A DNA stretch of 24,689 bases from Candidatus Limnocylindrales bacterium (lineage in GTDB: Bacteria > Chloroflexota > Limnocylindria > Limnocylindrales > CSP1-4). The notes beneath the pieces are model-generated. The model worked only from the letters and a program-made list of their open reading frames with translations. It did not search any database and was not told where the DNA came from. This document shows, one piece after another, positions 882-23,805 of the stretch (position 1 is the first letter of the stretch; every line of letters begins with the position of its first letter). The stretch covers positions 1-24,689 of the forward strand of contig JBKJXL010000028.1 of NCBI GenBank assembly GCA_046716225.1, in the 5' to 3' direction. Made by a program: the position numbers and the translations under genes.

Positions 882-1894
882 GCCAGACGATCCCGGACTG
901 GTCCGGCGAGCCGCTCGAGCGTCTCCTCGTCACGAGGCGAGGGCAGGTCGGCGATCGCCTCCTCCGCCCCCGCCGCATGCCATGCGCGCAGCAACCCGGC
1001 CACGACCTCCTCAGTGTCGGCCAGCGGCGAGCTTTCGGCCCATGCCCGGGCATGGGCCGGGGTGCCACCTTGCTGGGCCAGAATCCCCGTCAATGCCTCG
1101 ACCGCGCCGTCCCGGCTGTCGCGGATGCAGATCGGGGGCACGCCGACGGTCCTGCGGATCTCCGAGGGGTCGCGACCGATCTCGGCACAGTGGTCGTCGA
1201 GGATCGCGTTCTTGCGGGCAAACGCCGACGGCTCGCCCTCACCGTTCCAGATGTCCGCATCGCGAGCGACGATTCGCAGCGTCCGACGCTCGCCACTCCC
1301 GCCGATGAGAAACGGCATGCGGGCCTGCACCGGTGGGGGATCGTTGCGCAGGTCTCGCGCGCTCACCCAGGCACCCTCGAACGTCATCTGCTTCCCGTCA
1401 AGGAGGCCGTGGACCACGTGTGCGGCTTCATCGAGCCGGCTGATCCGATCGCCGAGGGTGAGCACCCGGTAGCCAAACGCCCGATGCTCGGGCTCGTGCC
1501 AGCCCCCGCCCAGGCCGAGGATCGCCCGGCCGCCGGTCGCATGGTCGAGCGCGGTCGCCATCTTGACCGTCAGGCCGACGTTCCGATAGCCCACTCCGCA
1601 GACCATCACACCCAGGGGCACGCGCAAAGTCAGGGCGGCCCAGCCGGCGATCGTCATCCAGGCCTCGAAGACCGGGCCGGCCGGTCCGACGATCGGACCG
1701 TCGGAGTCACCGAGGATCGGCATCAAGTGGTCGTTGGCGAAGAGGCTGGCAAAGCCGAGCGCCTCGATCCGCTGACCCGTCGACATCAGATCGGCCCACG
1801 AGATCGACTGCCCCCAGACCTGAAAACCGATCCGGATCGGCTCCCGTGGACCAGGTCGCGGCCCAAGGAGGCCGCCGGCGGCACTGTCCGTCAT
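878..1894 (-). CDS. LLM-class (luciferase-like) flavin/F420-dependent oxidoreductase, 338 aa
   Basis: Motifs NDHLMP, FEAWMT, GRAILGLGGGW, IGGSGERRTL..ARDADIWN. ATG at 1894 overlaps the upstream stop (ATGA). The longer 730-aa ORF in the track is an upstream shadow extension. Confidence 0.88.
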   Translation of the reverse strand: MTDSAAGGLLGPRPGPREPIRIGFQVWGQSISWADLMSTGQRIEALGFASLFANDHLMPILGDSDGPIVGPAGPVFEAWMTIAGWAALTLRVPLGVMVCGVGYRNVGLTVKMATALDHATGGRAILGLGGGWHEPEHRAFGYRVLTLGDRISRLDEAAHVVHGLLDGKQMTFEGAWVSARDLRNDPPPVQARMPFLIGGSGERRTLRIVARDADIWNGEGEPSAFARKNAILDDHCAEIGRDPSEIRRTVGVPPICIRDSRDGAVEALTGILAQQGGTPAHARAWAESSPLADTEEVVAGLLRAWHAAGAEEAIADLPSPRDEETLERLAGPVRDRLA

Positions 1895-2922
1895 CGGTCG
1901 CGCTGCACCTCGACCGGACGACCCTCGCGCATCGATCGATCTGCAGCCACCGCGATCCTGAACGCGGCACGTCCGTCCGCTCCGGTCACCTCCACCGGGC
2001 GGTCGTCCACGATGGCCCGGACGAAGCCCTGCGCCTGCGCTGCGAGCCCTCGCTCGAAACGTGGGATGGCGGTCTCGAGGGCGTCCACAGCGAACGTGCC
2101 GCTGATGGCGCCACCGCTCGACGCCCCCTGCGTGCCCGACAGGAGGCCGACCCAGACTGAACCGTTGGTGGCCAGGACCTCCGTGCGGACATCCTCCCCG
2201 TACGTCGTGTTGCGGGCAAGTTCGACGGTGCCGGTTGCGCCGCTCGCGAACCGGAGGTTGACCACGGCGCTGTCGACGTCGCCGACCGAGGCGAGGGTCG
2301 GGTGTGCGTAGGTGGAACCGTAGGCATGGACCTCGACGACCTCGTCGGCCATGAGCCATCGGGCGAGGTCGAACTCGTGGATCCCCATATCGATCATGAT
2401 CCCGCCGCTGACGGCCGGATCGGCGAACGCGAGCGGCGGCGGCTCGGGGTCGAATTGGAGCGACTTGAACAGCATCGGACGCCCGTAGGCACCCGATGCG
2501 AGGCGTGCCTGGGCGCGGACGTAGTCTGGTTCCCAGCGGCGCATGAACCCGACCTGCAATCGGACGCCGGCACGATCCGCAGCTCCGATGGCGGCATCGG
2601 TGTCTGCGAGCGTCAGCGCGATGGGCTTCTCGCACAGGATGTCCTTGCCGGCGCTTGCGGCGAGCTGGATCATCTCGAGGTGACGGCTCGACGAGGTCGC
2701 GATGAGGACGGCGTCGAGACCTGGGGTCGCAAGGAGCGCTTCGATCGAATCGAAGACCGGCGGCCCGCCGACCTGCGCGGCTAAGCGGCGTCCGGCTTCG
2801 ACGTTGACGTCCGCGATCCCCACGAGCTTCGCCTGGGGCACGCTGCCACGGACGAGCCTGGCGTGGATCGAGCCCATCCGTCCGGCGCCGACGAGGCCGA
2901 TCCTGACGCGCGCAGCACTCAT
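1891..2922 (-). CDS. iolG: Gfo/Idh/MocA family oxidoreductase, myo-inositol 2-dehydrogenase-like, 343 aa
   Basis: GAGRMG, CEKPIA, GFMRRW, DMGIHEFD, YGEDVRTEV motifs; ATGA overlap with iolH; iol context. Substrate specificity not certain. Confidence 0.8.
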   Translation of the reverse strand: MSAARVRIGLVGAGRMGSIHARLVRGSVPQAKLVGIADVNVEAGRRLAAQVGGPPVFDSIEALLATPGLDAVLIATSSSRHLEMIQLAASAGKDILCEKPIALTLADTDAAIGAADRAGVRLQVGFMRRWEPDYVRAQARLASGAYGRPMLFKSLQFDPEPPPLAFADPAVSGGIMIDMGIHEFDLARWLMADEVVEVHAYGSTYAHPTLASVGDVDSAVVNLRFASGATGTVELARNTTYGEDVRTEVLATNGSVWVGLLSGTQGASSGGAISGTFAVDALETAIPRFERGLAAQAQGFVRAIVDDRPVEVTGADGRAAFRIAVAADRSMREGRPVEVQRDR

Positions 2923-3788
2923 CGCGCGGGCGCCGGATGCACGTCGAGGTAGTGCCGGATCCGCTCCAGCATGAAGCGCGACGACTCGACCGCCCGCTCC
3001 TCCCAGGCAAAGACACAACTCGTAAGGATGCCGTCGAAGCGGACTCGCCGAAGCGCCGCGAAGCAGGCATCCCAGTCCACCTCGCCCTGTCCGATGTCCA
3101 GGTGCTGGTGGACCCGTGCCGCCGACCCCGGTGGGTTGACGATGTAGCGCAGACCGGAGGAGGCCCGGTGGTCGAAGACGTCGGCGAGGTGGACCTGGGC
3201 GAGGACCGGCGCCGCGTACTCGATCATCGCTGCGATGTCATCGCCGAGGTGGAAGGTGTGGGGCGCGCAGTAGAGGTAACCGACGCCCGAAGAGTTGATG
3301 CCGCGGACGAGGTCCACGGCGGCGTCATTGCGTTCGATGAAATCGTCCGGGTGGGCTTCCAGATTCAGCTTGATTCCTTCGCGCTCGAGGATCGGGAGCA
3401 GCTCCTCCAGCGAGCGCCAGAACTGCGCCTCGCTCGTGGCTGCCGCCTCGGGTCGCCCGTTGAACTCGGAGTTCATGACCGTGGCGCCAAGCTCGACGGC
3501 CAGCTGGATCGCCCGCTTCCAGTAGCGGACCGCCGCCAGGCGTTCGTCCTCGTCCGGGCTCGACCATCGGTACAACGGCAACACGGACGAAAGCTCCATA
3601 CCGGTCTCGCGGAGGGCCGTGCGGAACTCCGCCACCCGGGCGCCGTCGGCACGCGGGTGCGTGAAGAAGGGAATGAACTCGGGTCGCGGTGAGAGCTCGA
3701 TGGCGTCGTACCCGATCTCCGCGGCGATCCGGCATACCTCGGCGAATGGAAGCCCGCGGAGCATGTACGGGTCAAGTGCGATCTTCAC
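2919..3788 (-). CDS. iolH: IolH-like sugar phosphate isomerase/epimerase (TIM barrel), 289 aa
   Basis: KIALDPYM, IELSPR, AAVRYWKRAI, LRYIVNPP, VHQHLDIGQGEVDW and VFAWEERA closely match Bacillus IolH as I recall it. GTG start with a GGAGG Shine-Dalgarno. Confidence 0.85.
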   Translation of the reverse strand: MKIALDPYMLRGLPFAEVCRIAAEIGYDAIELSPRPEFIPFFTHPRADGARVAEFRTALRETGMELSSVLPLYRWSSPDEDERLAAVRYWKRAIQLAVELGATVMNSEFNGRPEAAATSEAQFWRSLEELLPILEREGIKLNLEAHPDDFIERNDAAVDLVRGINSSGVGYLYCAPHTFHLGDDIAAMIEYAAPVLAQVHLADVFDHRASSGLRYIVNPPGSAARVHQHLDIGQGEVDWDACFAALRRVRFDGILTSCVFAWEERAVESSRFMLERIRHYLDVHPAPAR

Positions 3789-3789
3789 G

Positions 3790-6393
3790 TCACGAAGCCT
3801 CCCGCGCTGCGTCGTCAATCCGGTCGCGCAGCAGCATGGCGCTCGCGGCGATGAGATCGACCATCCGTCCCCGATCGATGGGGCGTTCGACCGCGGCCAT
3901 GTCGCGGACCCAGCGCAGCGTCCCATCGATGACGTCGAGGATGACCCCCGCCTCATCCACGCTGAAGAGCGGGCGATCCTGGACGTCGACATAGACCGGC
4001 GACGTGTGGGACGCCATGCTCGAGTTGAAGGCCGAGTGGATCTCGTGCGCGCTCCGCGACCGCGCCGCGATCCACGATCCAGCCCGGATGTCGACGAACG
4101 TCTCAATGCTCAGGTCGTCGGACGGTGTCGGGGATTCGCGCACCGCGACGACTTGCCCGTTGATCACGATCTCCACGGCGCTGATCAGGGGCTGCGCAGC
4201 ACGGACTCGAACGTGGGCCTCGAGACGCCCGCCCGATGCTGGGAGCGTCAGGACATCGCCGGGACCATGGCCGTCGACCGATAGTTCGATGACCGGCCCG
4301 GAGGTGGCGAACGTTCGGCCGGCCCGGACAGCGGCCGACCACGAATCGAATGTCGGCGGAGCGTCGCGATCCAGGCGGGCATACGTGCGGACCGCACCGA
4401 CGGGCACCTCGGCGGACATCTTGTCAGTCCCGCCGAGCACCGGGAGCCGGTAGCCACAATTGAGAAAGCGGTACCACTCTAGGATGGACGGATTGTCGAG
4501 GCCCGGCGCGAAACACTGCATCTCGACCGCGTCGATCCGGCCGGTCACGATGTCGGTGGCGATCTCCGCGTACGGCAGCGGGAAGTGCGCGGCGACGACC
4601 AACCCGCCCTGGGCATGACACTGGTCCGCCCAGTCGGCCAGCAGCTCCGTGAGGGCTCCGCCGATCCTTCCCTCGGGGCCGCCGCCGGCGGCCATGGTCA
4701 GGACGGGCCGGCGCGCCCCGAGCAGCCCGACATGGCCCAGCATGTTCTGGCGGTTCTCGGTTCCCACGATGACCGCGTGACGCCCGCTCGGATCGGTCGT
4801 CGAGCCCCAGGGAAGGTCGTTGACCGTCGAGAACTGATCGCCCCACTGCGTGGCGAGGAGATGGACGAACGCGACGTCCTCAGCGGCGGCCTGCAGAAGG
4901 GCGGTGGATGGAGCGAGGAAGTGGACGTGCGAATCTGCGGTCAGCCAGCCCTCTGGGCCCAGGTCGATCGGGCGCCCGAGCGGGACGTCGAAGCGACGCG
5001 TCCCCGGGTCGACGACCAGCGTGGTCCGCACGGGTCGATGATCGAACCCCTTGACGACCTCGATCTGGACCGAACCCACCGGCAGGTCGATCTCGAAGGT
5101 GCCCGGGACATAGGCGTAGATATCGCCACCAAGCAGCAGGTCGGTGCCCGTGTCCTCGTAGATGCCCGGGTTGACCTCGTCGCGGTGACCGAGCGGGGGG
5201 AGATAGCGCCCATCGGCTGCCAGGAACCGGACTCTCGCCGGCGTCGGCTCGCCCGTCGGACCATCGGTCACGGTGACCTCGACCCGGACGTCGAGGGGAG
5301 CCATCGGCAGGATGGCGAGCTTTCCGTCCGGGCTGACACGCCGCTCCCCGAGACGTGCGGCGGGAACGTCCCAGGCGCCGAACCGCAGCGTCGCGTCGGG
5401 CGCCAGCGCCACGTCGAGGACGGCCCGCGTCGCCTCGGCGTCGGGTCCGTGGCGATCGCCCGGTGTCGCCGGCCGGCCCCAACCGATCAGTCCGCTCGGC
5501 TCCACCGGCCCCATCGGTTGTTCGACTGGCCGCGACCTGATCGCGATCCCCAGATCCACGGTGGGCAGCCCGCCGCCGAACCCTTCCACGAGGATCTGCC
5601 GGCGAGGTCCGGCGATGAGCGGGCTCGCAGAGCCATTGAACAGGGTGACCGCCGCCACGACGACGTCTGTGCCGGGCCGCCCGCCCCCGAGCGGGGCAAG
5701 CCGCAGCTCGACGAGCTCCGTGGCGTGGTCGAGCGGGATGGCGTGAAGCCAATAGGTGGCGTCGTCGTCCGCGGTGGGAACGAAATCGGCTACGCCGGTC
5801 TGGGCCGGCCCCCACGCGCCCGGCAGCATCGTCAACGGCCCGGCGTGCCCTGCCGCGGCATAGCGGCCTGGTCCCTGGCGTGGGTGCGGACCGCGCCAAT
5901 CGACGACCTCATCGGGACGGTGGCCGACGGCAGCGAAGGGGAGAAAGCCCCAGCCGATGATCCCGTCGTTGATCTCCGACCTGCGCCGCACGTCGAGCAC
6001 CTGGGTTCGGCCATCGGCACCGACCAACTCGTACCGCGCAAGGGATTCCCCGGCCGACAGAACCCAGCCGACCGGCGCACCCGATGGCCTCGCACCGGCC
6101 GGATCCCGCCAGCTGTCGCTGAAATGCGCGACGACCACGTGGCTGGCCGGCCCATGGCCACGCAGGTCGATCGTGATCTCGCGATCGAGAAGAATCCAGC
6201 GCCGAGCGATCGATCGGCGCCCAAGGCTGAACGGAATGCCCCGGAAGACCTGGTCGCCTTCCGGGAGGCGTTCGATCGCCTGGCGATAGTGTGGGTGGAA
6301 TCGCTCGGCGACGTCCGCATCGGAGGCATTCCAGCTGTCCGCCAGCACGATCGGGCGGGCCAGGGGAGTTGCCGGGGCCGCGGTGACGTTCAC
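3790..6393 (-). CDS. CehA/McbA-family metallohydrolase (C-terminal PHP-like domain, long unassigned N-terminus), 867 aa
   Basis: WLTADSHVH (HxH), GTENRQNMLGH, VAAHF and GYRLPVLGGTDKM in the C-terminal half, followed by the GRTFATSGP...LSVDG beta-rich tail typical of these proteins. No signal peptide evident. Start GTG uncertain. Confidence 0.7.
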   Translation of the reverse strand: MNVTAAPATPLARPIVLADSWNASDADVAERFHPHYRQAIERLPEGDQVFRGIPFSLGRRSIARRWILLDREITIDLRGHGPASHVVVAHFSDSWRDPAGARPSGAPVGWVLSAGESLARYELVGADGRTQVLDVRRRSEINDGIIGWGFLPFAAVGHRPDEVVDWRGPHPRQGPGRYAAAGHAGPLTMLPGAWGPAQTGVADFVPTADDDATYWLHAIPLDHATELVELRLAPLGGGRPGTDVVVAAVTLFNGSASPLIAGPRRQILVEGFGGGLPTVDLGIAIRSRPVEQPMGPVEPSGLIGWGRPATPGDRHGPDAEATRAVLDVALAPDATLRFGAWDVPAARLGERRVSPDGKLAILPMAPLDVRVEVTVTDGPTGEPTPARVRFLAADGRYLPPLGHRDEVNPGIYEDTGTDLLLGGDIYAYVPGTFEIDLPVGSVQIEVVKGFDHRPVRTTLVVDPGTRRFDVPLGRPIDLGPEGWLTADSHVHFLAPSTALLQAAAEDVAFVHLLATQWGDQFSTVNDLPWGSTTDPSGRHAVIVGTENRQNMLGHVGLLGARRPVLTMAAGGGPEGRIGGALTELLADWADQCHAQGGLVVAAHFPLPYAEIATDIVTGRIDAVEMQCFAPGLDNPSILEWYRFLNCGYRLPVLGGTDKMSAEVPVGAVRTYARLDRDAPPTFDSWSAAVRAGRTFATSGPVIELSVDGHGPGDVLTLPASGGRLEAHVRVRAAQPLISAVEIVINGQVVAVRESPTPSDDLSIETFVDIRAGSWIAARSRSAHEIHSAFNSSMASHTSPVYVDVQDRPLFSVDEAGVILDVIDGTLRWVRDMAAVERPIDRGRMVDLIAASAMLLRDRIDDAAREAS

Positions 6394-6439: not shown

Positions 6440-6458
6440 CCTGCAATCGGTTGCGCAA
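6430..6458 (-). promoter_or_regulatory. Divergent sigma70-like promoter for the metallohydrolase-iolH-iolG operon
   Basis: Minus strand TTGCGC (6458-6453), 17-nt spacer, TAGCAT (6435-6430); overlapped by the operator. Confidence 0.55.
6442..6457. promoter_or_regulatory. LacI-type operator, copy 1 (TGCAATCGGTTGCGCA)
   Basis: Near-palindrome with central CG fitting TGNAANCGNTTNCA. The 15-bp core recurs at 11112-11126 and 23813-23827; a LacI gene lies in the cluster. Confidence 0.85.
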
Positions 6459-6472
6459 GTCGGAGGGATTCG

Positions 6473-8353
6473 ATGAGGTCGGTTCGACTGACGACTGGCC
6501 AGGCCATCATCCGCTTCATGGCCCAACAGTACGTGGAGCGCGACGAACGTCAGCAACGCTTCATCGCGGGCGTGTGGGGCATCTTCGGGCACGGTAACGT
6601 CGCCGGCCTCGGACAGGCGCTCGAGGAACTCGGCGACGCCGAGGAGATGCCCTACTACCGGCCCCAGAACGAACAGGGACAAGTGCACATCGCGGCCGCC
6701 TATGCGAAGCACCGGAACCGCCTGCAGACCTTCGCGTGCACGTCGTCGATCGGTCCCGGTGCCACCAACATGGTCACGGGCGCTGCCAGCGCGACGGTCA
6801 ACCGTATCCCCGTGCTGCTGCTTCCAAGTGACTACTTCGCCAACCGCGTCTCCGACCCGGTGCTCCAGCAGATCGAGCACCCCGCTGAGCACGATGTCAG
6901 TGCGAGCGACGCGTTCCGTCCTGTGTCACGGTTCTTCGATCGGATCTCACGGCCGGAGCAACTGATCGCGAGCCTGCCTGAGGCGTTCCGTGTCCTGACC
7001 GACCCGGTCGAGACCGGTGCGGTGACGGTGACACTTCCCGAGGACGTTCAGTCCGAGGCGTTCGACTGGCCCGAGCGCTTCTTTGAGCGCCGTGTCTGGC
7101 GAGTCCGCCGGCCCGTTCCGGAGCCGGCGGTCGTGGCGGACGTCGTTCGGTTGCTGACCGAGGCGGAGGCGCCCCTGATCATCACCGGTGGCGGGACGAT
7201 CTATGCCGAGGCCACCCGCGAACTGGACGCGTTCGCATCGCGGTTCGGGATCCCTGTCGCCGAGACCCAGGCCGGCAAAGGCGCCCTCTCGTGGAACAAG
7301 CCGATGAACGCCGGGCCGATCGGTGCGAACGGCGGCCTGGCCGCCAATCGGCTGGCGCGTGACGCGGACCTGATCCTGTGCCTGGGCACCCGGATGGGCG
7401 ACTTCGTGACCTCGTCACGCACCATGTTCCAGAATCCCCGCGCCCTGTTCGTCGGCATCAATGTCGCTCCCATGGACGCCCACAAGTTGCGGGCGTTCCC
7501 GCTCGTGGCGGACGCTCGCGAGGCTATCACCGCGATTTCAGCCGCGCTCGAGACCGCCGGCTACCGTGGGACGTCGGACGCCTATCAACAACGGATCGGC
7601 CAGCTCAAGACCGACTGGGACGCGATCGTCGCGGGACTCCGCACCGTCAACGGAGAACCAGGGGATCTTGGGCAGGCCGAGGTCATCGGCATCGTGAACG
7701 ACACCGTGGGCGGGAATGCCACGGTGATCTGCGCTGCTGGAAGTCTCCCCGGCGATCTGCTCAAGCTCTGGCGAGCTGAAGACTCCAAGGCCTATCACGT
7801 CGAGTACGGCTACTCCTGCATGGGCTACGAGGTCGCCGCCGGGCTGGGTGTGGCGCTCGCGGAACCCGGGCGTCGGGTCGTGGTCATGGTCGGAGACGGT
7901 TCCTACCTGATGCTGAACTCGGAGATCGTGACCGCGGTGGCCGAGGGTCTGAAGTTCACGATCGTCCTGCTGGACAACCACGGCTTCCAGTGCATCACCG
8001 GCCTCGCGCGATCGGTCGGCGTGCCGGATTTCGGGAACGACCTTCGCTTCCGCGACAAGGGACGCAACCGCCTGACCGGGCCGTATGTTCCGATCGACTT
8101 CCGCCAGCATGCGGAGGCGATGGGCGCTCTGGCGATCTTCGCCGCCACCGCGGACGAGCTGAAGGCTGCTCTGGAACGGGCCGATCAGGCCGACCGGGTC
8201 ACCGTGATCGTCGTGCCCACCGAGCCCGAGAAGCGCGTCCCCGGATTCGAGGGTTGGTGGGAAGTTCCCGCGGCGGAGGTGAGTGGTCAGGCGGGCGTCC
8301 GGGCCGCGCGCGACGCGTACGACAAGGCGCGCACCATGCAGCGGCTCGGGTGA
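6473..8353 (+). CDS. iolD: 3D-(3,5/4)-trihydroxycyclohexane-1,2-dione acylhydrolase (ThDP-dependent), copy 1, 626 aa
   Basis: RLTTGQA..F, GIFGHGNVAGLGQAL, NEQ, TSSIGPGATNMVT, AAGSLPGDL, HVEYGYSCMGYE, GDGSYLM..N. Confidence 0.92.
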   Translation: MRSVRLTTGQAIIRFMAQQYVERDERQQRFIAGVWGIFGHGNVAGLGQALEELGDAEEMPYYRPQNEQGQVHIAAAYAKHRNRLQTFACTSSIGPGATNMVTGAASATVNRIPVLLLPSDYFANRVSDPVLQQIEHPAEHDVSASDAFRPVSRFFDRISRPEQLIASLPEAFRVLTDPVETGAVTVTLPEDVQSEAFDWPERFFERRVWRVRRPVPEPAVVADVVRLLTEAEAPLIITGGGTIYAEATRELDAFASRFGIPVAETQAGKGALSWNKPMNAGPIGANGGLAANRLARDADLILCLGTRMGDFVTSSRTMFQNPRALFVGINVAPMDAHKLRAFPLVADAREAITAISAALETAGYRGTSDAYQQRIGQLKTDWDAIVAGLRTVNGEPGDLGQAEVIGIVNDTVGGNATVICAAGSLPGDLLKLWRAEDSKAYHVEYGYSCMGYEVAAGLGVALAEPGRRVVVMVGDGSYLMLNSEIVTAVAEGLKFTIVLLDNHGFQCITGLARSVGVPDFGNDLRFRDKGRNRLTGPYVPIDFRQHAEAMGALAIFAATADELKAALERADQADRVTVIVVPTEPEKRVPGFEGWWEVPAAEVSGQAGVRAARDAYDKARTMQRLG

Positions 8354-9243
8354 CCAAGGAGGGCGCTCCTTCGCCGTGCGCCGAGCTCGAGGCGCATGCG
8401 CGCCTCGGTCGCTGGCTCGTCATGAGCACCGTTGCAGGAAGCGGCGCCGGCCACGTCGGCGGACCTCTGTCGGCGATGGACATCTGGGTGGCCCTGTTCT
8501 TCCGGGTGTTGAGGATCCGTCCGGAGGAACCCGATTGGGCCGACCGCGACCGCTTCATCCTGTCGAAGGGTCACTCGGCGGTCGGGCTGTACGCGGTCAT
8601 GGCTCAGCGTGGCTACTTCCCGGTTGCCGAGTTGGCGACGTTCGACAGGGGCGACTCTCGATTGCAGGGCCACCCGGACATGACCCGCCTGCCCGGGCTC
8701 GACGCGTCCACCGGATCGCTCGGGCAGGGCCTGGCGGTGGGTGTCGGAATCGCGCTCGGCGCGAAACTCCGTGGCCGCGGCTTCGGCACGTTCGTGATGC
8801 TCGGTGACGGCGAATGCCAGGAGGGCATGGTCTGGGAGTCCGTTCAGGTCGCGGCCAGGTACGGCCTCGGCAACCTGACCGCGATCGTGGATCATAACGG
8901 CCTGCAGCAGTACGGCTGGCCGCTCGGAAACGACCCAAACCCTCGTGGCGACCGAAATGAGCCGTGGCCCGGAAGCAAGCTCCGCGACGTCTTTGAAGCG
9001 TTCGGCTGGCACGTGCTCGAGATCGATGGGCACGACTTCGACGAGATCGTACGCGCGTGTGCGGCGGCCCGCGAGGCAGCATCGGGCAGTCAGCCGACGG
9101 CGATTCTGGCCCGAACGATCAAGGGCCGAGGACTCTCCTTCACGGAGGGGCGCCACGCCTGGCACGCCCGGATCCCCACGCCCGACGAGCTCGAGACTGC
9201 CCGTGTCGAACTGGGCATCGATGCCTCTGGTCAGACCCGATGA
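8350..9243 (+). CDS. Split transketolase, N-terminal (ThDP-binding) subunit, about 297 aa
   Basis: GHVGG, DRDRFILSKGH, LQGHPD, STGSLGQG, GDGECQEG..N motifs; GTG start overlaps the iolD stop (GTGA). Confidence 0.9.
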   Translation: MTKEGAPSPCAELEAHARLGRWLVMSTVAGSGAGHVGGPLSAMDIWVALFFRVLRIRPEEPDWADRDRFILSKGHSAVGLYAVMAQRGYFPVAELATFDRGDSRLQGHPDMTRLPGLDASTGSLGQGLAVGVGIALGAKLRGRGFGTFVMLGDGECQEGMVWESVQVAARYGLGNLTAIVDHNGLQQYGWPLGNDPNPRGDRNEPWPGSKLRDVFEAFGWHVLEIDGHDFDEIVRACAAAREAASGSQPTAILARTIKGRGLSFTEGRHAWHARIPTPDELETARVELGIDASGQTR

Positions 9244-10184
9244 GGTCCCAACGTGAAACCTGGGGCGACACGCTGGCTGAGCTCGGCACGACGAATCCCG
9301 ACATCGTCGTGCTCGACGGGGACCTGGCCAACTCGACCAAAGCGGATATCTTCGCCAGGGCCCACCCGGAGCGCTTCCTCGAGATGGGGATTGCGGAACA
9401 GAACATGGTTGGTGTCGCGGTCGGCCTGGCAACCCTGGGTTTCGTCCCGTGGTTGTCCTCGTTCGCGGTCTTTCTGACCCATCGCTCGCTCGACCAGATT
9501 CGCATGCTCGTCGCCCAGCCGGGGGCGAACGTCAAGATCGGCGCCGCGTACGCCGGTCTGCTCACCGGGCTGACCGGGAAGACCCATCAGGACGTCCAGG
9601 ATCTGGCGAACATGCGGGCCATGCCCGGCATGACGGTGCTCGCGCCCGGTGACGAGGTCGAGTGTGCCGCGATGACCCGCTGGGCGACCGAGTTCACTGG
9701 CCCCGTCTACCTGCGCCTGACTCGCGATCCCACCCCGCCGCTGTTCGATGATTCGTACCGATTCGAACCGGGCCGAGTTCATCAACTGCGCGATGGGCGC
9801 GACGCCCTGCTGATCTCGACCGGTCCGCAGACCGGGCGCTGCATCGAAGCGGCTGCGCTGCTCGAGGCCACCGGCCTGTCCGTCGGGGTCCTCCATGTGC
9901 CGTCGATCAAGCCGATCGACGAGGCCGCCGTTGTGCGAGCCGCCCGTGGGTCGGATCTGCTCGTCACCGTTGAGGAACACAACGTCATCGGCGGGCTTGG
10001 CGGCCTGGTCGCGGAGATTCTCACGACGCGCTTGCCCAGGCGCCTCGTCCGGATTGGGATGGAGGACTCTTGGGGTGAGTCGGCGCCGAACGACTTCCTG
10101 CTCGAGAAGCACGGTCTGTCGGCGTCACGTGTCGCCGAGCGGGTGCTCGTCGAACTCAGGGTCGTTGTCGAGGAGAAGTCGTGA
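9240..10184 (+). CDS. Split transketolase, C-terminal (pyrimidine-binding plus C-terminal) subunit, 314 aa
   Basis: DGDLANST, FLEMGIAEQNMVG, THQ, MRAMPGM, GPVYLRL, TVEEHNVIGGLG; ATGA overlap with the upstream subunit. Confidence 0.9.
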   Translation: MRSQRETWGDTLAELGTTNPDIVVLDGDLANSTKADIFARAHPERFLEMGIAEQNMVGVAVGLATLGFVPWLSSFAVFLTHRSLDQIRMLVAQPGANVKIGAAYAGLLTGLTGKTHQDVQDLANMRAMPGMTVLAPGDEVECAAMTRWATEFTGPVYLRLTRDPTPPLFDDSYRFEPGRVHQLRDGRDALLISTGPQTGRCIEAAALLEATGLSVGVLHVPSIKPIDEAAVVRAARGSDLLVTVEEHNVIGGLGGLVAEILTTRLPRRLVRIGMEDSWGESAPNDFLLEKHGLSASRVAERVLVELRVVVEEKS

Positions 10185-11023
10185 ACAGAGAGCCGATCCG
10201 TCATCTCGCCTCGGGACCCGGGACCGGTACGGTCCTGGAGATCACCCCGGAGTCGATCGGATGGAAGTACATCAGCTCCAGCGTGGTGGCCCTTGGCGCG
10301 GGTCGGCGACACGAAGGGGACACCGGGCTCAACGAGGTCGCGATCGTCCCGCTTGTCGGGACCGCCGTCTTCGAATTCGCGGGGCAGACCCACACGGTCT
10401 CGCGCCGCGACGTCTTCACCGAGATGCCGCACGTGGCCTACCTGCCACCTCGGACGGCCTACACGATCACAGCGGTCGAGGCGTTTGAGTTCGCGTCGGG
10501 CGGCGTACCGGCCGAAGGGCGCCTCCCGGCGCGGCTCTTCACACCCGATGAGCTGCCGAGCTCGCTCCGCGGCGGCGTGAATGTCAGCCGCGGCGTGACC
10601 GGGACCCTCGACCTGAGTCTCCCGGCGGAACGCCTGCTCGCCTACGAGATCGTGACCCCGAGCGGGAACTGGTCGAGCTTTCCACCTCACCGCCATGACG
10701 GCACGAACGGGACCACCTATCACGAGGAGACGTACTACTTCCGACTCCAGCCTCGTGACGGCTTCGCGATCCAGCGGATTTACTCGCCCGAGAGCGAGCT
10801 CGACCTGTCGTTCTGCGCGCGAGATGGTGATCTCATCCTTGTCCACGAGGGGTACCACACGGTGGCGACCGCTCCAGGGACCAACGCGTACTACCTCAAC
10901 TTCCTCGGTGGCGACGTTCGCCCGGTGAGCCAGTACATCGACCCAGCCTACGCGTGGGTGGCCCAGGACTGGGAAGGTAGACCAGTCGGGATCCCCGTCG
11001 GAGGTCGTCGGGCCGCGGACTGA
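10181..11023 (+). CDS. iolB: 5-deoxy-glucuronate isomerase, 280 aa
   Basis: GNWSSFPPHRHD, HEETYYFR, QRIYS, GYHTVATAPG..YYLNFL cupin motifs; GTGA overlap. Confidence 0.9.
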   Translation: MNREPIRHLASGPGTGTVLEITPESIGWKYISSSVVALGAGRRHEGDTGLNEVAIVPLVGTAVFEFAGQTHTVSRRDVFTEMPHVAYLPPRTAYTITAVEAFEFASGGVPAEGRLPARLFTPDELPSSLRGGVNVSRGVTGTLDLSLPAERLLAYEIVTPSGNWSSFPPHRHDGTNGTTYHEETYYFRLQPRDGFAIQRIYSPESELDLSFCARDGDLILVHEGYHTVATAPGTNAYYLNFLGGDVRPVSQYIDPAYAWVAQDWEGRPVGIPVGGRRAAD

Positions 11024-11077
11024 CGGCCGATCATCGGCCCGGACGATCTTCCCGAAAACATCGATGTTCCCGAAATG

Positions 11078-11106
11078 TTGACGGGCGTGAGGTCGGATGC
11101 TACCGT
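11078..11106 (+). promoter_or_regulatory. Sigma70-like promoter for the aminotransferase-lacI-ABC operon
   Basis: TTGACG (11078-11083), 17-nt spacer, extended -10 TGcTACCGT ending at 11106; nearly identical to the promoter at 6410. Confidence 0.7.
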
Positions 11107-11110
11107 CCCC

Positions 11111-11126
11111 TGCAATCGGTTGCGCA
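11111..11126. promoter_or_regulatory. LacI-type operator, copy 2 (TGCAATCGGTTGCGCA)
   Basis: Identical to copy 1; 4 nt downstream of the -10 box. Confidence 0.85.
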
Positions 11127-11143
11127 GCGGAGGAAGGGCACGC

Positions 11144-12376
11144 ATGCCAGGACCAGGTCTCGATCTGCTCGGGTCGGAGGAGCTGGCCGAGGTCGCCGAG
11201 GTTCTGGCGAGTGGCCACCTCGCGCGGTATGGTCCCGACGACGACTCCTTTCCAGCCAAGGTGCGTCGGTTCGAGGAGCTCGTCGCCGAGCTGTCCCGGA
11301 CGAAGTACGCCCTGGCTCTCAACTCCGGCACGAGCGGCCTGTTCCTGGCCCTCGTCGGGCTCGGGATCGGACCAGGGGACGAGGTCATCGTGCCCGGCTT
11401 CACGTTCGTCGCCACGATCAGCTCGGTCATCTACGCGCGTGCCCGGCCGGTCCTCGCCGAGATCGATGACTCATTCAACCTCGACCCAAGGGACGTCGAG
11501 ACGCGCATCACGCCGCGGACGCGGGCGATCATCGTCGTCCACATGCTGGGCAACCCGGGGCGACTCGATGAGCTCAAGGTGGTCGCGGCACGGCACGGCC
11601 TCGCGCTCATCGAGGACGCCGCACAGGCCTTTGGCGCCACCTATCGCGGTCGCTGGGTCGGCGGTCAGGCGGAGGCCGGGGTCTACAGCTTCAACGAGTT
11701 CAAGACCATCACCTGCGGCGATGGCGGGATGCTGGTCACGGACGACGAGGACCTCTACAGGCGCGCCTTCGCCATGCACGACCAGGGACACAGCCCCAAC
11801 CGGCGCGGGATCGAGGTCGGCAATCGACCCTTCCTCGGGCTCAATTTCCGGATGACCGAGTTGCAGGGCGCGGTGCTGCTTGCCCAGGTGCGCCGGCTCG
11901 ACCGGATCCGGGACCACCTGCGGGCGAATCGCGATCTGGTCAAGGGCATCATCGGGGAGATCCCGGGGGTCGGCTTTCGGACGCTTCCGGATCCGGCAGG
12001 AGACCTCGCCACGCACCTCGTCGTCCTCTTTCCGGACGCCTCGACGGCCCGCGCGGTGACCGCGGAGTTGGGATCGATCACCCTGGCGTCATCGGGCTGG
12101 CATGTGTACAACCACATGGAGCACGTGCTGAGCGAACGGACCATCACCGGGCGCGGCTGTCCCTTTGACTGCGCTTGCACGGATGACCAGCCGACCGGAT
12201 ACCGGCCCGGGATGCTGCCCGAGACTGATCGGCTGCTTGACCGGTCGATGAGCTTCTCGATCGGCGTCCAGGATCCGAACCTCGCGCCGTTCGGCCTGCG
12301 GATGCGTGACGGCGCGGACGTCGCCCGCGCTCGGGCGGAGCAATTCCGCGCTGTCGCGTCACGCGTCCTGGCCTAG
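11144..12376 (+). CDS. DegT/DnrJ/EryC1/StrS family PLP-dependent aminotransferase, 410 aa
   Basis: NSGTSGL, GDEVIVPGFTFVAT, IEDAAQA (PLP Asp), SFNEFKTITCGDGG (Schiff-base Lys), GLNFRMTE. ATG 11144 follows GGAGGAAGG. Confidence 0.92.
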   Translation: MPGPGLDLLGSEELAEVAEVLASGHLARYGPDDDSFPAKVRRFEELVAELSRTKYALALNSGTSGLFLALVGLGIGPGDEVIVPGFTFVATISSVIYARARPVLAEIDDSFNLDPRDVETRITPRTRAIIVVHMLGNPGRLDELKVVAARHGLALIEDAAQAFGATYRGRWVGGQAEAGVYSFNEFKTITCGDGGMLVTDDEDLYRRAFAMHDQGHSPNRRGIEVGNRPFLGLNFRMTELQGAVLLAQVRRLDRIRDHLRANRDLVKGIIGEIPGVGFRTLPDPAGDLATHLVVLFPDASTARAVTAELGSITLASSGWHVYNHMEHVLSERTITGRGCPFDCACTDDQPTGYRPGMLPETDRLLDRSMSFSIGVQDPNLAPFGLRMRDGADVARARAEQFRAVASRVLA

Positions 12377-12393: not shown

Positions 12394-13449
12394 ATGGCAG
12401 TCCGCGACGCCGCGCCGCATCGCCGGGTCGTCCTCGACGACGTCGCGCGGATGGCCAAGGTCTCGAGATCGACGGCGTCCCGCGCACTCGTTGACGATCC
12501 CCGGATCAGCGAGCCGACGCGCACCGCGGTTAAGCATGCCGCCAGCGAGCTCCAGTACGTTCCGAACGCGGCCGCTCGCAGCCTTCGTGCTCAACGGACC
12601 CGGATCCTCGGTCTCCTGCTGGCCAACTTGAGCGACCCGGTCCACGGGCAGATCGCCGCCGCGTTCGAGCAGGAGGCGGAGGCCGGCGGCTATCGGGTGA
12701 TCTTTGCCGCCGGCCTCCAGGACCCAGCGCTGGAGCGCAAGACCCTCAGCATCTTCACCGAACACGCGGCTGACGGAGTCGCGATGGTCTCCTGCGTCCT
12801 GGCTCCGAGCGAAGCCCGGGCGCGCGTTCGGCCCGACCGGCTGATCATCGTCCAGCCCGATCATCGCAGGGTGCAGCGGTACCGCGGCCCGCTCGTGCCC
12901 GGCGTGATCATGACTGACGACGCCAGCGGGGTCGAGGCGGTCGTCGATCACCTGGTGGCGACCGGTCACCGCGATATCGCCTACGTCGGAAGCGGCGCTC
13001 GCGCGTCGAGCACGGTGCATCGGGAAGCCGTCGGGCGAGCCCTCCAAAAGCATGGCATTCGTCCCCAGCTCGACCGCTTCCCGAGCCCGGACGACGCCTG
13101 GCGCGCTCCGGATGCCATCGCGACACTGATCGCCGCCGATCTGCCGGAGGCGCTGATCTGCTACGAGGACGTGCAGGCGCTCGCCCTGATGGACGCGTTG
13201 CGGCGCCTTGGCATCCAGACGCCCGACGATGTCGGCATCGTCGGCTTTGACGGAATCCTGTTCGCCGAGATGTCCAACCCACGCTTGACGACCGTGGCGA
13301 CCCCGCTGGCCGAGCTGGGGCGACTTGCGGCCTCGTCGCTGATCGGCGCCATCCAGACGGGGACGCTGCCCGAGGCCAGGGTCCTCCCAGTGCAGTTGGT
13401 CGTTCGCGAGAGCACGCGGTCGCGCGTCGCCCGGGAAGGCGAGGCGTAG
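12394..13449 (+). CDS. LacI family transcriptional regulator, 351 aa
   Basis: N-terminal HTH LDDVARMAKVSRSTASRAL, hinge YVPNAAARSL, C-terminal PDDVGIVGFDG..LTTV..LVVRES. Confidence 0.95.
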   Translation: MAVRDAAPHRRVVLDDVARMAKVSRSTASRALVDDPRISEPTRTAVKHAASELQYVPNAAARSLRAQRTRILGLLLANLSDPVHGQIAAAFEQEAEAGGYRVIFAAGLQDPALERKTLSIFTEHAADGVAMVSCVLAPSEARARVRPDRLIIVQPDHRRVQRYRGPLVPGVIMTDDASGVEAVVDHLVATGHRDIAYVGSGARASSTVHREAVGRALQKHGIRPQLDRFPSPDDAWRAPDAIATLIAADLPEALICYEDVQALALMDALRRLGIQTPDDVGIVGFDGILFAEMSNPRLTTVATPLAELGRLAASSLIGAIQTGTLPEARVLPVQLVVRESTRSRVAREGEA

Positions 13450-13452
13450 CGC

Positions 13453-14550
13453 GTGCCCGAGTCGCAACCCGCCATCGAGCTGATCGACGCGACCAAGCGC
13501 TACGGCGATGTCGTGGCACTCGACGGCGTCTCGCTCCAGATCGAACCGGGCGAGTTCTTCTGCCTCCTTGGACCGTCCGGCTGCGGGAAGACGACCACCC
13601 TCAACCTGATCGGTGGATTCCTCCCGCTGACGTCGGGCGAACTGCATATCGAGGGACGCCGGGTGAACGACCTGCCGCCCCACAAGCGCAACGTCAACAC
13701 GGTCTTCCAGAACTACGCCCTGTTCCCGCACATGAACGTCGCCCAGAACGTCGCGTTCGGGTTGCGAATGGCGGGCCTCGGCAAGGACGAGGTCGCCCGA
13801 CGGGTCGAGGAGTATCTGGACCTGGTCGGGCTGCTTGGCCACTCGGAGCGGTCACCGTCACAGCTCTCGGGCGGGCAGCAGCAGCGCGTCGCCCTGGCCC
13901 GTGCGCTGGCCAAACGGCCGGCGGTCCTCCTCCTCGACGAGCCGCTGGGCGCCCTCGACCTCAAGCTGCGTCACCAGATGCAGTTCGAGCTGGCCAGGAT
14001 CCACCGCCAGGTCGGGACGACCTTCGTGTTCGTGACACACGACCAGGAAGAGGCGCTCTCGATGTCCACCCGGATCGCCGTGATGTCGGGCGGCCGGGTC
14101 AGCCAGGTCGGCACCCCCCGCGAGATCTACTACAACCCCGTGGACCGCTTCGTGGCCGACTTCATCGGCGAATCGAACTTCCTCGCAGGTGCCGTCAGGC
14201 ACGAGGACGGCAGGCCCTGGTTCGTGCTCGAGAGCGGGGAGCGGATGCCCATCCCGGACGGGGCCGTGGAAGGACCGGCCACCGTGATGCTCCGGCCGGA
14301 ATCGCTCGTCGTGGGACCGGTCGGCAGCGCGCCCGGGCCGGCCATCACGGGCCGGATCCAGGGCATGGCGTTCATGGGCAATCACACGCGAGTCACAGTC
14401 AGCACGGCGGCGGGCGCCCTCGTCGTGCATCGACTCCACGGAGGCGGCGCAGGGCTTGGAGGTTCCGAGGGACAGATCGATGAGGAGGCATGCGTCTGGT
14501 GGTCACCCACGGAAGCGATCGTGATGGCAGAAACGGGAGCGAGGAGGTAA
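13453..14550 (+). CDS. ABC transporter ATP-binding protein, PotA/CysA type, 365 aa
   Basis: Walker A GPSGCGKT, VFQNYALFPHM, LSGGQQQRVALARAL, LLLDEP, FVTHDQEEAL, TOBE-like tail. Confidence 0.95.
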   Translation: MPESQPAIELIDATKRYGDVVALDGVSLQIEPGEFFCLLGPSGCGKTTTLNLIGGFLPLTSGELHIEGRRVNDLPPHKRNVNTVFQNYALFPHMNVAQNVAFGLRMAGLGKDEVARRVEEYLDLVGLLGHSERSPSQLSGGQQQRVALARALAKRPAVLLLDEPLGALDLKLRHQMQFELARIHRQVGTTFVFVTHDQEEALSMSTRIAVMSGGRVSQVGTPREIYYNPVDRFVADFIGESNFLAGAVRHEDGRPWFVLESGERMPIPDGAVEGPATVMLRPESLVVGPVGSAPGPAITGRIQGMAFMGNHTRVTVSTAAGALVVHRLHGGGAGLGGSEGQIDEEACVWWSPTEAIVMAETGARR

Positions 14551-14552
14551 CG

Positions 14553-15740
14553 ATGGATCCCATGGCTCGGAACAGGAACCTGACCCGGCGTCGTTTCCTG
14601 CAGGCGACGGCGGGAATCGGTGGTGTGGTCGCGTTCGGTGGCCTTGCGGCCGCGTGCTCGACCGGTGGCACCGGTACCAGTGCGGTGCCAGGTGCCAGCG
14701 CCGCGGCCGGCAGCAGCGCCGCGGCCGGCAGCAGCGCGGCGGCCGCGAGCCCAAAGGGCACCTTCAACTGGATGACCTGGAGCGATCACTACTACGAGGA
14801 GCAGCTCGCCGATATTGCGTCCACGAAGGAGATCAAGACCAGCGTCACCGAACTTGCCGACAACGCCGAAGGCTTCACCAAGGTCAAGGAGGTCGGCGGG
14901 CAGCTCGACATGATCTCGGGCGACGCGCTGTGGGTGCCGAAGTACTTCGAGGACGGGCTCATCGAGGCCTGGGACATCAACGAACTCCAGGTCGCGACGC
15001 AGCTCTACTCGATCGCTCGCGAGTTCGCCATCTGGACGAAGCCGGAGGGCTATCTCGGCTACCCGTTCGGGTGGTCGCCGGTCCAGCTCTACTACAACCC
15101 GAAGTTCGTCACCCCGACGCCCGACTCATGGGAGGTGCTGCTCGACCCCAAGTACAAGGGCCACATCGTCGTTGAGAACCAGCCCGTCGAGATCGTGGCC
15201 TACATGGCCAAGCTCGCCGGCGCGAAGGATCCGTACAACATGACCGCGGACGAGCTCGCCAAGGCGAGGGACCTGTTGACGCGCCTCAAGCCGAACCTCC
15301 TCAAGCTCACCCAGCAGAACACCGAGACGATCACCGCGCTGGTCAACGAGGAGGCCTGGATCGCAACCGGCAACCTGGGCGCCGAGGAACGGGTCAAGGA
15401 GGCCGGCGGACCCGAGGTGCTGGGCTTCACCCCGAAAGAGGGCACCGTCGGCTGGATGGACGCGGAGATGCTGGTCAAGGGCGGCAAGAACAACAACCTG
15501 CTCAAGCCCTTCCTGGAGGTCGCCGAGCAGGCGCCATACATCGCCGAGAACTTCATCAAGTACGGTCGCCCGCTGTTCAACGAAGCCGCCTACAAGCTGC
15601 TCGTCGACAAGGGCCAGAAGGACCGCGCCGACCGCTTCCTGTACAACAAGCCGGAGACGGTCCTGGCGATGACGCTCAAGGGCCCCGGGTCGTCGACCCA
15701 GGGCGCGATCGACGCCTTCAACGAGGTCTTCGGGGCCTAG
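14553..15740 (+). CDS. Tat-exported lipoprotein substrate-binding protein, PotD/PotF-like, 395 aa
   Basis: TRRRFL twin-arginine signal, LAAAC lipobox, WMTWSDHY, PDSWEVLLDPKYKG, PKEGTVGWMD; GAGGAGG SD before ATG 14553. Confidence 0.85.
   Translation: MDPMARNRNLTRRRFLQATAGIGGVVAFGGLAAACSTGGTGTSAVPGASAAAGSSAAAGSSAAAASPKGTFNWMTWSDHYYEEQLADIASTKEIKTSVTELADNAEGFTKVKEVGGQLDMISGDALWVPKYFEDGLIEAWDINELQVATQLYSIAREFAIWTKPEGYLGYPFGWSPVQLYYNPKFVTPTPDSWEVLLDPKYKGHIVVENQPVEIVAYMAKLAGAKDPYNMTADELAKARDLLTRLKPNLLKLTQQNTETITALVNEEAWIATGNLGAEERVKEAGGPEVLGFTPKEGTVGWMDAEMLVKGGKNNNLLKPFLEVAEQAPYIAENFIKYGRPLFNEAAYKLLVDKGQKDRADRFLYNKPETVLAMTLKGPGSSTQGAIDAFNEVFGA
14697..14750 (+). repeat. 18-bp tandem repeat, 2 exact copies plus 1 degenerate (SAAAGS linker)
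   Basis: AGCGCCGCGGCCGGCAGC at 14697 and 14715; AGCGCGGCGGCCGCGAGC at 14733. Confidence 0.85.
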
Positions 15741-15760
15741 CCGCCAAGTACACCCGCATC

Positions 15761-19552: not shown

Positions 19553-19589
19553 CGTCTTCGTCTCCGGGCCGCCGACCGCGCCCGGGCGT

Positions 19590-20390: not shown

Positions 20391-20404
20391 TCCCGGTCCG
20401 GTGA

Positions 20405-22321: not shown

Positions 22322-22337
22322 GCGGCGTGCCCTCCTG

Positions 22338-23759: not shown

Positions 23760-23805
23760 CGGTCTGGTCTCCGCGTCCCGATTCTGGGGTGTCGGCCGGG
23801 CGCGA

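Follow-up and report, generated by a model that had tools for sequence, protein, structure and literature searches.

The stretch analysed here (the window) is the whole of contig JBKJXL010000028.1 (C28; 24,689 nucleotides) of a Chloroflexota metagenome-assembled genome (MAG), that of a Candidatus Limnocylindrales bacterium, which comprises 2.16 Mb on 402 contigs and is 61.7% complete. Two genes of myo-inositol catabolism in this window enclose a transketolase (TK) encoded by two genes, tktN and tktC. Our comparisons showed that this TK belongs to a clade whose substrate loop is rewritten and that its linkage to inositol genes recurs across phyla. We propose, from sequence and with a probability of about 0.5, that it is an accessory heterotetrameric thiamine diphosphate (ThDP) enzyme which would cleave 5-dehydro-2-deoxy-D-gluconate (DKG) to D-malate semialdehyde in a kinase-free branch of the breakdown of inositol or aminocyclitols. 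The operon consists of the following genes.

6473..8353, + strand: iolD1, 3D-(3,5/4)-trihydroxycyclohexane-1,2-dione hydrolase, a ThDP enzyme (TIGR04377, 880.5 bits against a cut-off of 715; three TPP_enzyme domains)
8350..9243, + strand: TK N-subunit (PP domain), 297 aa (PF00456, 170 bits; N-chain of 6YAK, E=1e-73)
9240..10184, + strand: TK C-subunit (Pyr and C domains), 314 aa (PF02779 and PF02780, 130 and 88 bits; 6YAJ, E=1e-85)
10181..11023, + strand: iolB, 5-deoxy-glucuronate isomerase, which makes DKG (TIGR04378, 234 bits against a cut-off of 205; PF04962)

The iolD-tktN-tktC-iolB operon

Window genes were typed with Pfam and NCBIfam profiles on all long open reading frames, with equivalog cut-offs of 715 bits for IolD (TIGR04377), 205 for IolB (TIGR04378), 290 for IolE (TIGR04379) and 450 for IolM (NF041097); the cut-off for IolC was 300 bits, and the IolC kinase was looked for as TIGR04382 or as a DUF2090 fusion. 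Both canonical-pathway enzymes of the operon, IolD and IolB, exceeded their equivalog cut-offs (880 and 234 bits). The TK carries the Transketolase_N, Transket_pyr and Transketolase_C domains of the Transketolase superfamily, split over its two adjacent genes.

The initial annotation of this DNA had described the four genes as joined by three 4-bp overlaps. The junction sequences (GTGA at 8350-8353 for iolD/tktN, ATGA at 9240-9243 for tktN/tktC and GTGA at 10181-10184 for tktC/iolB) agreed with this description, as did independent gene calls in L096, the best syntenic relative (79% identical), which gave the same three 4-bp overlaps. The four genes are translationally coupled in the window and likewise in L096, L123 and G112. 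On their own such overlaps are ordinary translational coupling, and it is the iolD-TK linkage recurring across phyla that goes beyond chance.

The same annotation had reported no iolC, iolJ or iolA in the window, and this was upheld: neither the profiles nor six-frame tblastn with bona fide IolC, IolJ, IolA and transaldolase-like (TAL-like) queries found a PfkB kinase, a class II or LacD-type aldolase, an MMSDH/IolA or a TAL-like gene there. A search of the whole MAG gave no IolC, IolJ, IolA or TAL reaching its cut-off; the best IolC_N match scored 128 bits against the cut-off of 300, no DUF2090 was present, and neither MMSDH (TIGR01722, at E <= 1e-100) nor a TAL_FSA-family gene was found. Because the MAG is only 61.7% complete, genome-wide absence of iolC cannot be inferred for the source organism, and iolC, TAL and MMSDH may be encoded elsewhere in its genome.

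Active site of the noncanonical transketolases

The subunits of 26 clade members, 57 canonical split TKs and Escherichia coli TktA were aligned (E. coli numbering is used throughout). A maximum likelihood tree of the concatenated subunits recovered the noncanonical TK clade with a support of 100/99.

The cofactor and catalytic residues His26, His66, His100, Asp155, Asn185, His261, Glu411, Phe434, Phe437 and His473 were invariant in the 26 clade members and are all present in the window protein, whose N-subunit keeps the GDG motif alongside the catalytic His residues. In the canonical split TKs these residues were kept in 55-57 of the 57 rows, the remainder being alignment gaps and one His473Ala. 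The distal anion site of canonical TK (EC 2.2.1.1), formed by Arg358, Ser385 and Arg520, is also found in the window enzyme. Arg358 and Arg520 were invariant in the clade and in the canonical split TKs, while position 385 was a serine in 26/26 clade members and an alanine (45/57) or a serine (12/57) in the canonical enzymes.

Comparison of the substrate loops showed that position 461 was a tyrosine in 26/26 clade members and a histidine in 57/57 canonical split TKs, whereas position 469 was a threonine, an alanine or a serine in every clade member and an aspartate in every canonical enzyme. Position 468 was non-acidic in the clade instead of a glutamate, and position 471 was a lysine in 22 of the 26 members instead of an alanine; in addition, Ile189 was replaced by a glutamine and Arg91 by an aspartate. 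In the window C-subunit the rewritten loop spans residues 104-116 (about 9549-9587), in which Tyr104 corresponds to His461, Leu111 to Glu468, Thr112 to Asp469 and Lys114 to Pro/Ala471, so that the canonical pair of His461 and Asp469 within a Gly-Glu-Asp-Gly loop is lacking (Tyr, Leu and Thr are found).

The loss of two acidic residues and the gain of a lysine beside a retained anion site fit an anionic, non-phosphate substrate whose carboxylate would lie closer than a phosphate. Such a change would suit DKG because its carboxylate should sit about one bond nearer the reaction centre than the phosphate of xylulose-5-phosphate. In the TK acting on sulfofructose the same histidine is replaced and both arginines are kept (RSFHR to RAFDR; PMC11659671), and the H461S and D469T mutations of E. 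coli TktA shift acceptor preference away from the natural substrates (PMC3657141).

Distribution and gene context of the transketolase

Relatives were sampled as 121 genomes of the same order, 78 of them of the same family and 15 of the same genus; genes in the compared loci were chosen with a GC3-based gene picker, and TKs were counted as C-subunit homologues at E <= 1e-40. Such a homologue was present in 37 of the 78 family genomes and in 3 of the 15 same-genus genomes. All five relatives checked (G101, G103, G035, G104 and G112) possess a canonical long TK (Transketolase_N, 477-503 bits). Because relatives carry this additional enzyme, the window TK is an accessory paralogue, dedicated to the inositol regulon, and not a housekeeping enzyme.

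TKs linked to iolD or iolB were found in Chloroflexota clusters of types A and B and of genus g2, in Paenibacillus validus and in a MAG labelled proteobacterial (L008), and they are spread over the clade, from its base through its middle to its crown. The type A order, iolD-TKN-TKC-iolB, is that of the window, L096 and L123, and also of G112, where a TAL-like gene lies upstream. The order was U862-TIM-IolD-TIM-TKN-TKC-GFO-IolB in L124, IolD-TIM-TKN-TKC-GFO-IolB in L008 and TKN-TKC-IolD in G035 and G115. Among the 28 genomes of the order sample with an IolD above cut-off, 10 had the TK within 10 kb of IolD.

The cultured strain P. validus NBRC 15382 contains both a TK cluster and a canonical operon. 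The former is ordered ALDH-IolG-IolD-TKN-TKC-IolB-TIM-ABC-GFO-LacI (L016:4670-18699; ALDH, aldehyde dehydrogenase), while the latter, on another contig, is ordered IolD-IolE (401 bits)-IolC (421 bits)-IolA/MMSDH (641 bits)-class II aldolase (IolJ)-IolG-IolB (L126:6383-15623). In the TK cluster, the TK and a lactaldehyde-dehydrogenase-like ALDH (NF040648, 489 bits) stand where IolC, IolJ and IolA would be, and no TAL-like gene was found in this genome. The window ALDH described below is 39% identical to the ALDH of this cluster and 29% identical to the P. validus IolA. The strain offers a culturable test system. A further split TK, of canonical type, lies just upstream of the TK cluster (L016:44-1006).

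A sister group of TKs has the same Tyr and Thr changes. In L032 and L129 its genes lie directly behind an archaeal-type GAPDH-PGK-malic enzyme-malate racemase series, and in L128 behind the same series without malic enzyme; the nickel-dependent malate racemase homologue scored 485 bits against a cut-off of 500. The GAPDH-PGK-(malic enzyme)-(malate racemase homologue)-TKN-TKC module was seen in anaerobe MAGs at L032:4230-10933, L128:5478-10933, L129:4199-10933 and L130:6655-10939, and neither iolD nor iolB was present within 10 kb of it at these four loci.

Operators and the other genes of the window

The exact 15-mer GCAATCGGTTGCGCA occurs three times in the window, and three matches were obtained in 0 of 100 shuffles. 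The operators and the genes associated with them are as follows.

6443..6457, + strand: operator copy 1, within the divergent promoter region, 16 nt before iolD starts
11112..11126, + strand: operator copy 2, ahead of the aminotransferase-LacI-ABC-ZnADH operon
23813..23827, - strand: operator copy 3, between the ALDH operon and the divergent IolE-like gene
11075..12376, + strand: DegT/DnrJ/EryC1-type aminotransferase (PF01041, 275 bits; true start probably past the operator, near 11144)
12394..13449, + strand: LacI-family repressor (PF00356 and Peripla_BP_3)
13453..17522, + strand: ABC importer, with an ATPase, a PotD-like SBP_bac_6 binding protein and two permeases (profile matches)
17519..18526 (start approximate), + strand: IolM-like Zn-dependent alcohol dehydrogenase (Zn-ADH; ADH_N and ADH_zinc_N; NF041097, 210 bits, under the cut-off of 450)
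18557..19552, - strand: D-isomer-specific 2-hydroxyacid dehydrogenase, last gene of the operator-3 operon (PF02826 and PF00389; no equivalog reached)
19590..20504, - strand: HpcH/HpaI (GarL-like) class II aldolase (PF03328, 130 bits; GarL/HpaI models 178-180 bits, under their cut-offs)
20405..22321, - strand: iolD2, second IolD paralogue (TIGR04377, 781 bits against a cut-off of 715)
22338..23819, - strand: non-acylating, lactaldehyde-dehydrogenase-like ALDH (NF040648 best, 482 bits; MMSDH outside the top matches)
23920..24687, + strand: IolE-like xylose-isomerase-like TIM barrel, cut by the window end (PF01261; TIGR04379, 118 bits, under 290)
878..6393, - strand: divergent operon of four genes, in the same order in L096, comprising the next four entries
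3790-6393, - strand: 867-aa conserved protein with no Pfam match
2919 to about 3905, - strand: TIM barrel
1891-3018, - strand: IolG-like GFO oxidoreductase
878 to about 1894, - strand: luciferase-like oxidoreductase

Since the exact 15-mer is shared by three operons, the TK operon is very probably co-regulated with the aminotransferase, ALDH and 867-aa-protein operons; the LacI-family repressor is presumed to read the three operators. DegT-type aminotransferases and Zn-ADHs are the enzyme types of 2-deoxystreptamine and inosamine synthesis. The combination of aminotransferase, Zn-ADH and amine-type importer suggests that the inducer may be an inosamine or an aminocyclitol. The aminotransferase, which probably catalyses transamination between an inosamine or aminocyclitol and a 2-oxoacid, is kept beside the cluster in L096, L097, L112, L124, L125 and G035.

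In the window iolD2 is paired with the HpcH/GarL-like aldolase and also with the ALDH and the D-2-hydroxyacid dehydrogenase (18557-23819, minus strand); the HpcH-IolD pair recurs in a genome of the same genus (L118:1359-3956), and this may be a separate ring-cleavage branch; that this aldolase acts as an oxaloacetate decarboxylase downstream of D-malate is speculation. Proteins of about 865 aa with no Pfam match head or flank the cyclitol clusters of several Chloroflexota (L096:4472-7078, L097:12028-14622, L124:2813-5401 and L118:4787-7357).

Predicted route of DKG degradation

In the proposed route, IolD would open the ring to give 5-deoxy-D-glucuronate and IolB would isomerise it to DKG (HOCH2-CO-CHOH-CHOH-CH2-COO-). 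The TK would then load the C6-C5 ketol unit of DKG on ThDP and pass it to an aldose phosphate, presumably converting glyceraldehyde-3-phosphate to xylulose-5-phosphate, and would release D-malate semialdehyde (3-hydroxy-4-oxobutanoate), the sugar acid being cleaved without a kinase.

The stereochemistry of the product is derived from that of the substrate. Read from its keto end, DKG is D-threo, as is xylulose-5-phosphate, with a carboxylate replacing the phosphate ester (derived from the Fischer projections); this reading is consistent with DKG phosphate being the substrate of a homologue of fructose-bisphosphate aldolase. The resemblance of DKG to xylulose-5-phosphate, on which the initial annotation had built, is borne out, including the configuration that a TK donor needs. 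Since DKG is D-threo, TK cleavage would be expected to yield D-malate semialdehyde and then D-malate. The former idea that an ALDH oxidises the released semialdehyde to malate stands in so far as an ALDH other than MMSDH shares the operator, and has to be amended in that a D-malate step is needed, because the derived product is D-malate and not L-malate.

A lactaldehyde-dehydrogenase-like enzyme fits the oxidation because malate semialdehyde is a carboxy-lactaldehyde. The co-regulated ALDH of the window is the candidate malate-semialdehyde dehydrogenase, which would produce D-malate, and the co-regulated D-2-hydroxyacid dehydrogenase is the candidate for the following step, from D-malate to oxaloacetate. 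Elsewhere, D-malate would be handled by a malate racemase together with malic enzyme; the position of the sister TKs beside these two enzymes matches the derivation. In relatives the TK branch would run beside, and not in every case replace, a route to malonate semialdehyde, through a TAL-like enzyme or a kinase and an aldolase, as in the bifurcation between sulfo-TK and sulfotransaldolase (sulfo-TAL).

A broader proposal, to which we give slightly less than an even chance, is that the clade was retooled (His461Tyr, Asp469Thr, loss of Glu468 and gain of Lys471) to take carboxylated, unphosphorylated hex-5-ulosonates as ketol donors, and that within inositol regulons, in three phyla or more, it would split DKG into D-malate semialdehyde and a C2 unit that ends up in a pentose phosphate, providing a kinase-free and decarboxylation-free branch via D-malate to oxaloacetate or pyruvate, which would replace or parallel IolC/IolJ or a transaldolase. 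Full-text literature searches turned up no account of inositol being degraded through a transketolase or a transaldolase; the initial annotation likewise knew of no description of the route.

Replacement or parallel branch

The initial annotation had placed the TK in the position of IolC/IolJ. This holds for the window and for the second cluster of P. validus, but not for relatives that pair the TK with a kinase and an aldolase or with TAL and MMSDH. Type B clusters (L097, L007 and L112) join the TK to an IolC-like PfkB, IolB and a LacD-like aldolase, in the order IolD-aminotransferase-IolC-like PfkB (258 bits, cut-off 300)-IolB (260 bits)-LacD-like aldolase and, past LacI, TKN-TKC-GFO, which is followed in G116 by a second IolB. 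The two IolB paralogues of the G116 cluster (L112:9676-10563 and L112:16687-17466) differ in position: one adjoins the IolC-like kinase and LacD-like aldolase genes, and the other comes right after TKN-TKC-GFO.

The TAL-like protein (365 aa) is a divergent member of the transaldolase family (PRK03343, 117 bits against a cut-off of 367). Its gene directly adjoins IolB in 30 of the 46 IolB-positive family relatives, often with MMSDH/IolA next, and no IolC above cut-off was found in the genomes with this arrangement. The TAL-like/iolB loci are as follows.

L105:551-4209 (G104)
L106:1433-4954
L108:3852-7329
L110:2-2637
L118:17327-19272
L119:5001-8786
L125:5083-7050

This gene is the commonest candidate in the family for a kinase-free exit from DKG, predicted as DKG + glyceraldehyde-3-phosphate to fructose-6-phosphate + malonate semialdehyde. 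A bona fide IolC above cut-off was present in 1 of the 121 order genomes; with IolC this scarce, the telling contrast in the family is that between the TK and the TAL-like gene, which were not anti-correlated among the relatives. In genus g2 an IolB-TAL-like-MMSDH (613 bits) series lies a few kb from the TK and IolD, and no IolC-like match was obtained in g2 genomes at E <= 1e-55; one of these genomes, G104, consists of a single contig. Because relatives combine the TK with TAL-like and MMSDH genes or with an IolC-like kinase and an aldolase, the TK is often an addition to other lower routes rather than a substitute for them, and may act as a parallel branch by analogy with the bifurcated sulfo-TK/sulfo-TAL pathway of Faecalicatena, in which a TK and a transaldolase act on one ketose (PMC11659671).

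Several observations weigh against DKG cleavage as proposed here. The first is the type B association of the TK with a kinase and an aldolase. A TAL-like gene also coexists with the TK in g2, G112 and L125, in g2 together with MMSDH, so that in these clusters DKG already has an exit. In three g3 genomes a TAL-MMSDH-TKN-TKC block occurs with neither iolD nor iolB nearby (L115:5937-11093, L116:6414-11418 and L120:6487-11852); its neighbours are GntR regulators, a LIV-type ABC importer and a 588-aa protein containing a PEP-utilising mobile domain. Some clade TKs lie in sugar-acid contexts other than inositol: on the Arthrobacter plasmid NZ_CP171972.1 (MFS-IclR-ZnADH / TK-SDR-SSADH-like ALDH-GAPDH-like, neighbours by Pfam), in Evansella (PTS EIIC-GAT context) and in a sugar-acid cluster of Limnocylindria. 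An odd four-gene ThDP arrangement was seen at L114:8161-12802 (= L013), where a clade TK pair separates an E1-alpha-like from an E1-beta-like gene (E1a-TKN-TKC-E1b-SDR) in a sugar-kinase/aldolase cluster.

The dehydrogenases and the active site raise further objections. No ALDH was found within 10 kb at several TK-iol loci (L124, L008 and g2), and the window ALDH and 2-hydroxyacid dehydrogenase share their operon with iolD2 and the HpcH aldolase and may serve that module. Substitution of Asp469 is known to favour aldehydes without a 2-hydroxyl, as with propionaldehyde for the E. coli D469T enzyme (PMC3657141), whereas malate semialdehyde has one. Activity of the TK on DKG is a prediction, to which we give about even odds.

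Alternative explanations

The alternative that survives best, though we consider it unlikely, is that the donor is not DKG but another hex-5-ulosonate or ketose of the regulon, such as a 5-dehydrogluconate stereoisomer from an oxidative route of the IolM/IolN type, a DKG epimer, or an amino- or deoxy-analogue derived from an aminocyclitol, with another C4 semialdehyde acid as product. The regulon contains an IolM-like Zn-ADH, several GFO oxidoreductases and TIM barrels, the DegT aminotransferase, the PotD-like importer and the 867-aa protein, and Zn-ADH genes flank clade TKs both at loci not linked to iol genes (L009, L013 and L130) and in the P. validus cluster; loss of Asp469 could, moreover, relax the stereo-requirement at C4. 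In G035, G116 and P. validus the TK set has its own iolD/iolB although a second complete set is present, which suggests a distinct substrate. In G035, of the same genus, and in P. validus the second set is a TAL or canonical one, and the separate IolD and IolB of each set leave room for a different TK substrate. However, the tightest and most recurrent neighbours of the TK are IolD and IolB above their equivalog cut-offs, whose sole known product is DKG, and the TK clusters of P. validus and L123 have neither an aminotransferase nor an amine-type transporter.

Clearly less probable is that the TK has malonate semialdehyde, or some other 2-deoxy aldehyde acid, as its aldehyde partner, handled together with the TAL-like enzyme and MMSDH, for example by cleavage of 2-deoxy-4-pentulosonate to malonate semialdehyde or by interconversion of malonate semialdehyde with C4/C5 acids. 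The three g3 blocks, the TAL and MMSDH near the TK in g2, the TAL near it in G112 and L125, and the raised activity of the Asp469 to Thr enzyme on propionaldehyde speak for it. However, a source for this C5 ketose is not apparent, and the invariant Arg358 and Arg520 would probably be out of reach of a C3 aldehyde acid, judging from chain length. Moreover, neither TAL nor MMSDH lies near the TK in the window, L096, L123, L124 or P. validus, and the MMSDH of P. validus goes with IolC, not with the TK.

Marginally less probable again is an inducible helper acting on ordinary sugar phosphates, which would recycle fructose-6-phosphate or xylulose-5-phosphate and regenerate the acceptor glyceraldehyde-3-phosphate for a transaldolase or aldolase route. 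The frequent coexistence of the TK with TAL-like or kinase/aldolase modules would be explained by such a role, as would the retention of all catalytic residues and both phosphate-binding arginines; yet the lineage already has a canonical TK, no clade member retains the His461 and Asp469 that all canonical split TKs have, and the clusters of the window and P. validus contain no TAL to assist. A housekeeping TK that neighbours the iol genes by chance, as its being the sole clear Transketolase_N match of the incomplete MAG might suggest, was rejected on its patchy distribution and on the canonical long TK of the five relatives, and is made still more improbable by the linkage to iolD/iolB conserved across phyla and the rewritten active site.

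Comparison with known systems

myo-Inositol catabolism is a textbook pathway that serves as a marker of fitness in soil, the rhizosphere, the gut and pathogens, and IolC-IolJ-IolA is taken for granted in genome annotation and metabolic models. The window resembles the canonical pathway of the Bacillus subtilis type (IolG-IolE-IolD-IolB-IolC-IolJ-IolA) in its IolD, IolB, IolG-like and IolE-like genes and its repressor with operators, and the two would be the same up to DKG. It differs in having no IolC, IolJ or IolA/MMSDH. DKG would be split C2 + C4 (ketol unit and malate semialdehyde) rather than C3 + C3 (dihydroxyacetone phosphate and malonate semialdehyde), and the proposed route would end in malate or oxaloacetate rather than in acetyl-CoA and CO2. 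If the TK branch is real, it would alter the carbon and energy balance, since four carbons would be kept as malate rather than lost as acetyl-CoA and CO2 and the sugar acid would be processed without ATP; iol clusters that look incomplete would also be explained.

The TAL-like gene beside iolB is likewise a candidate kinase-free DKG exit in iol clusters with neither IolC nor IolJ; unlike the window TK, its product belongs to another enzyme family, would cleave C3 + C3 to give malonate semialdehyde and pairs with MMSDH. The D-apiose pathway reportedly (work of Carter and colleagues in 2018) uses an apulose-4-phosphate transketolase, AptAB, a split TK encoded in the pathway cluster whose substrate is first phosphorylated by a dedicated kinase. 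Like the window TK, AptAB is a split TK that serves a single catabolic pathway.

Among solved structures, the split TK of Carboxydothermus hydrogenoformans comes closest (6YAJ/6YAK; E=1e-85 and 1e-73, about 50% identity) and shares the two-gene architecture and the cofactor and catalytic residues. Its canonical His and Gly-Glu-Asp-Gly loop are replaced by Tyr and Gly-Leu-Thr-Gly-Lys in the window enzyme, whose N-subunit also has an insertion at residues about 187-210. The engineered E. coli TktA variants D469T, D469S and H461S (PMC3657141) are changed at the same two positions and are shifted to non-natural, non-phosphorylated or non-alpha-hydroxylated aldehydes. Each carries one laboratory mutation in a single-chain TK, whereas the changes of the clade are natural and fixed together with Ile189Gln, Arg91Asp and Lys471. 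The clade is thus a natural source of TKs replaced at Asp469 and His461, the positions that enzyme engineers mutate for non-natural substrates.

The sulfo-TK SqwGH (PMC9594981; PMC11659671) is likewise a split two-subunit TK that cleaves a ketose with a non-phosphate distal anion, with no kinase and with glyceraldehyde-3-phosphate as ketol acceptor (a role proposed for the window route); the phosphate-orienting histidine is replaced and both arginines are kept, and TK and transaldolase can work in parallel on the same ketose. It differs in that its substrate is a sulfonate, whereas that proposed for the window TK, DKG, is a carboxylate, and in that its motif is R-A-F-D-R (His to Asp and Ser to Ala) rather than R-S-F-Y-R. 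The window TK in addition replaces Asp469 and Glu468 and adds a lysine. The window has iol-type genes only, without the sulfoquinovose isomerase, sulfoerythrose isomerase and sulfoacetaldehyde reductase context, and the proposed route has a single TK step, with neither an isomerase nor another TK step to follow. By this analogy the window system would be a specialised TK recruited to a catabolic pathway, as in the sulfo-TK pathway, and the TK branch, if real, would extend the logic of sulfo-TK and sulfo-TAL from sulfonates to carboxylates.

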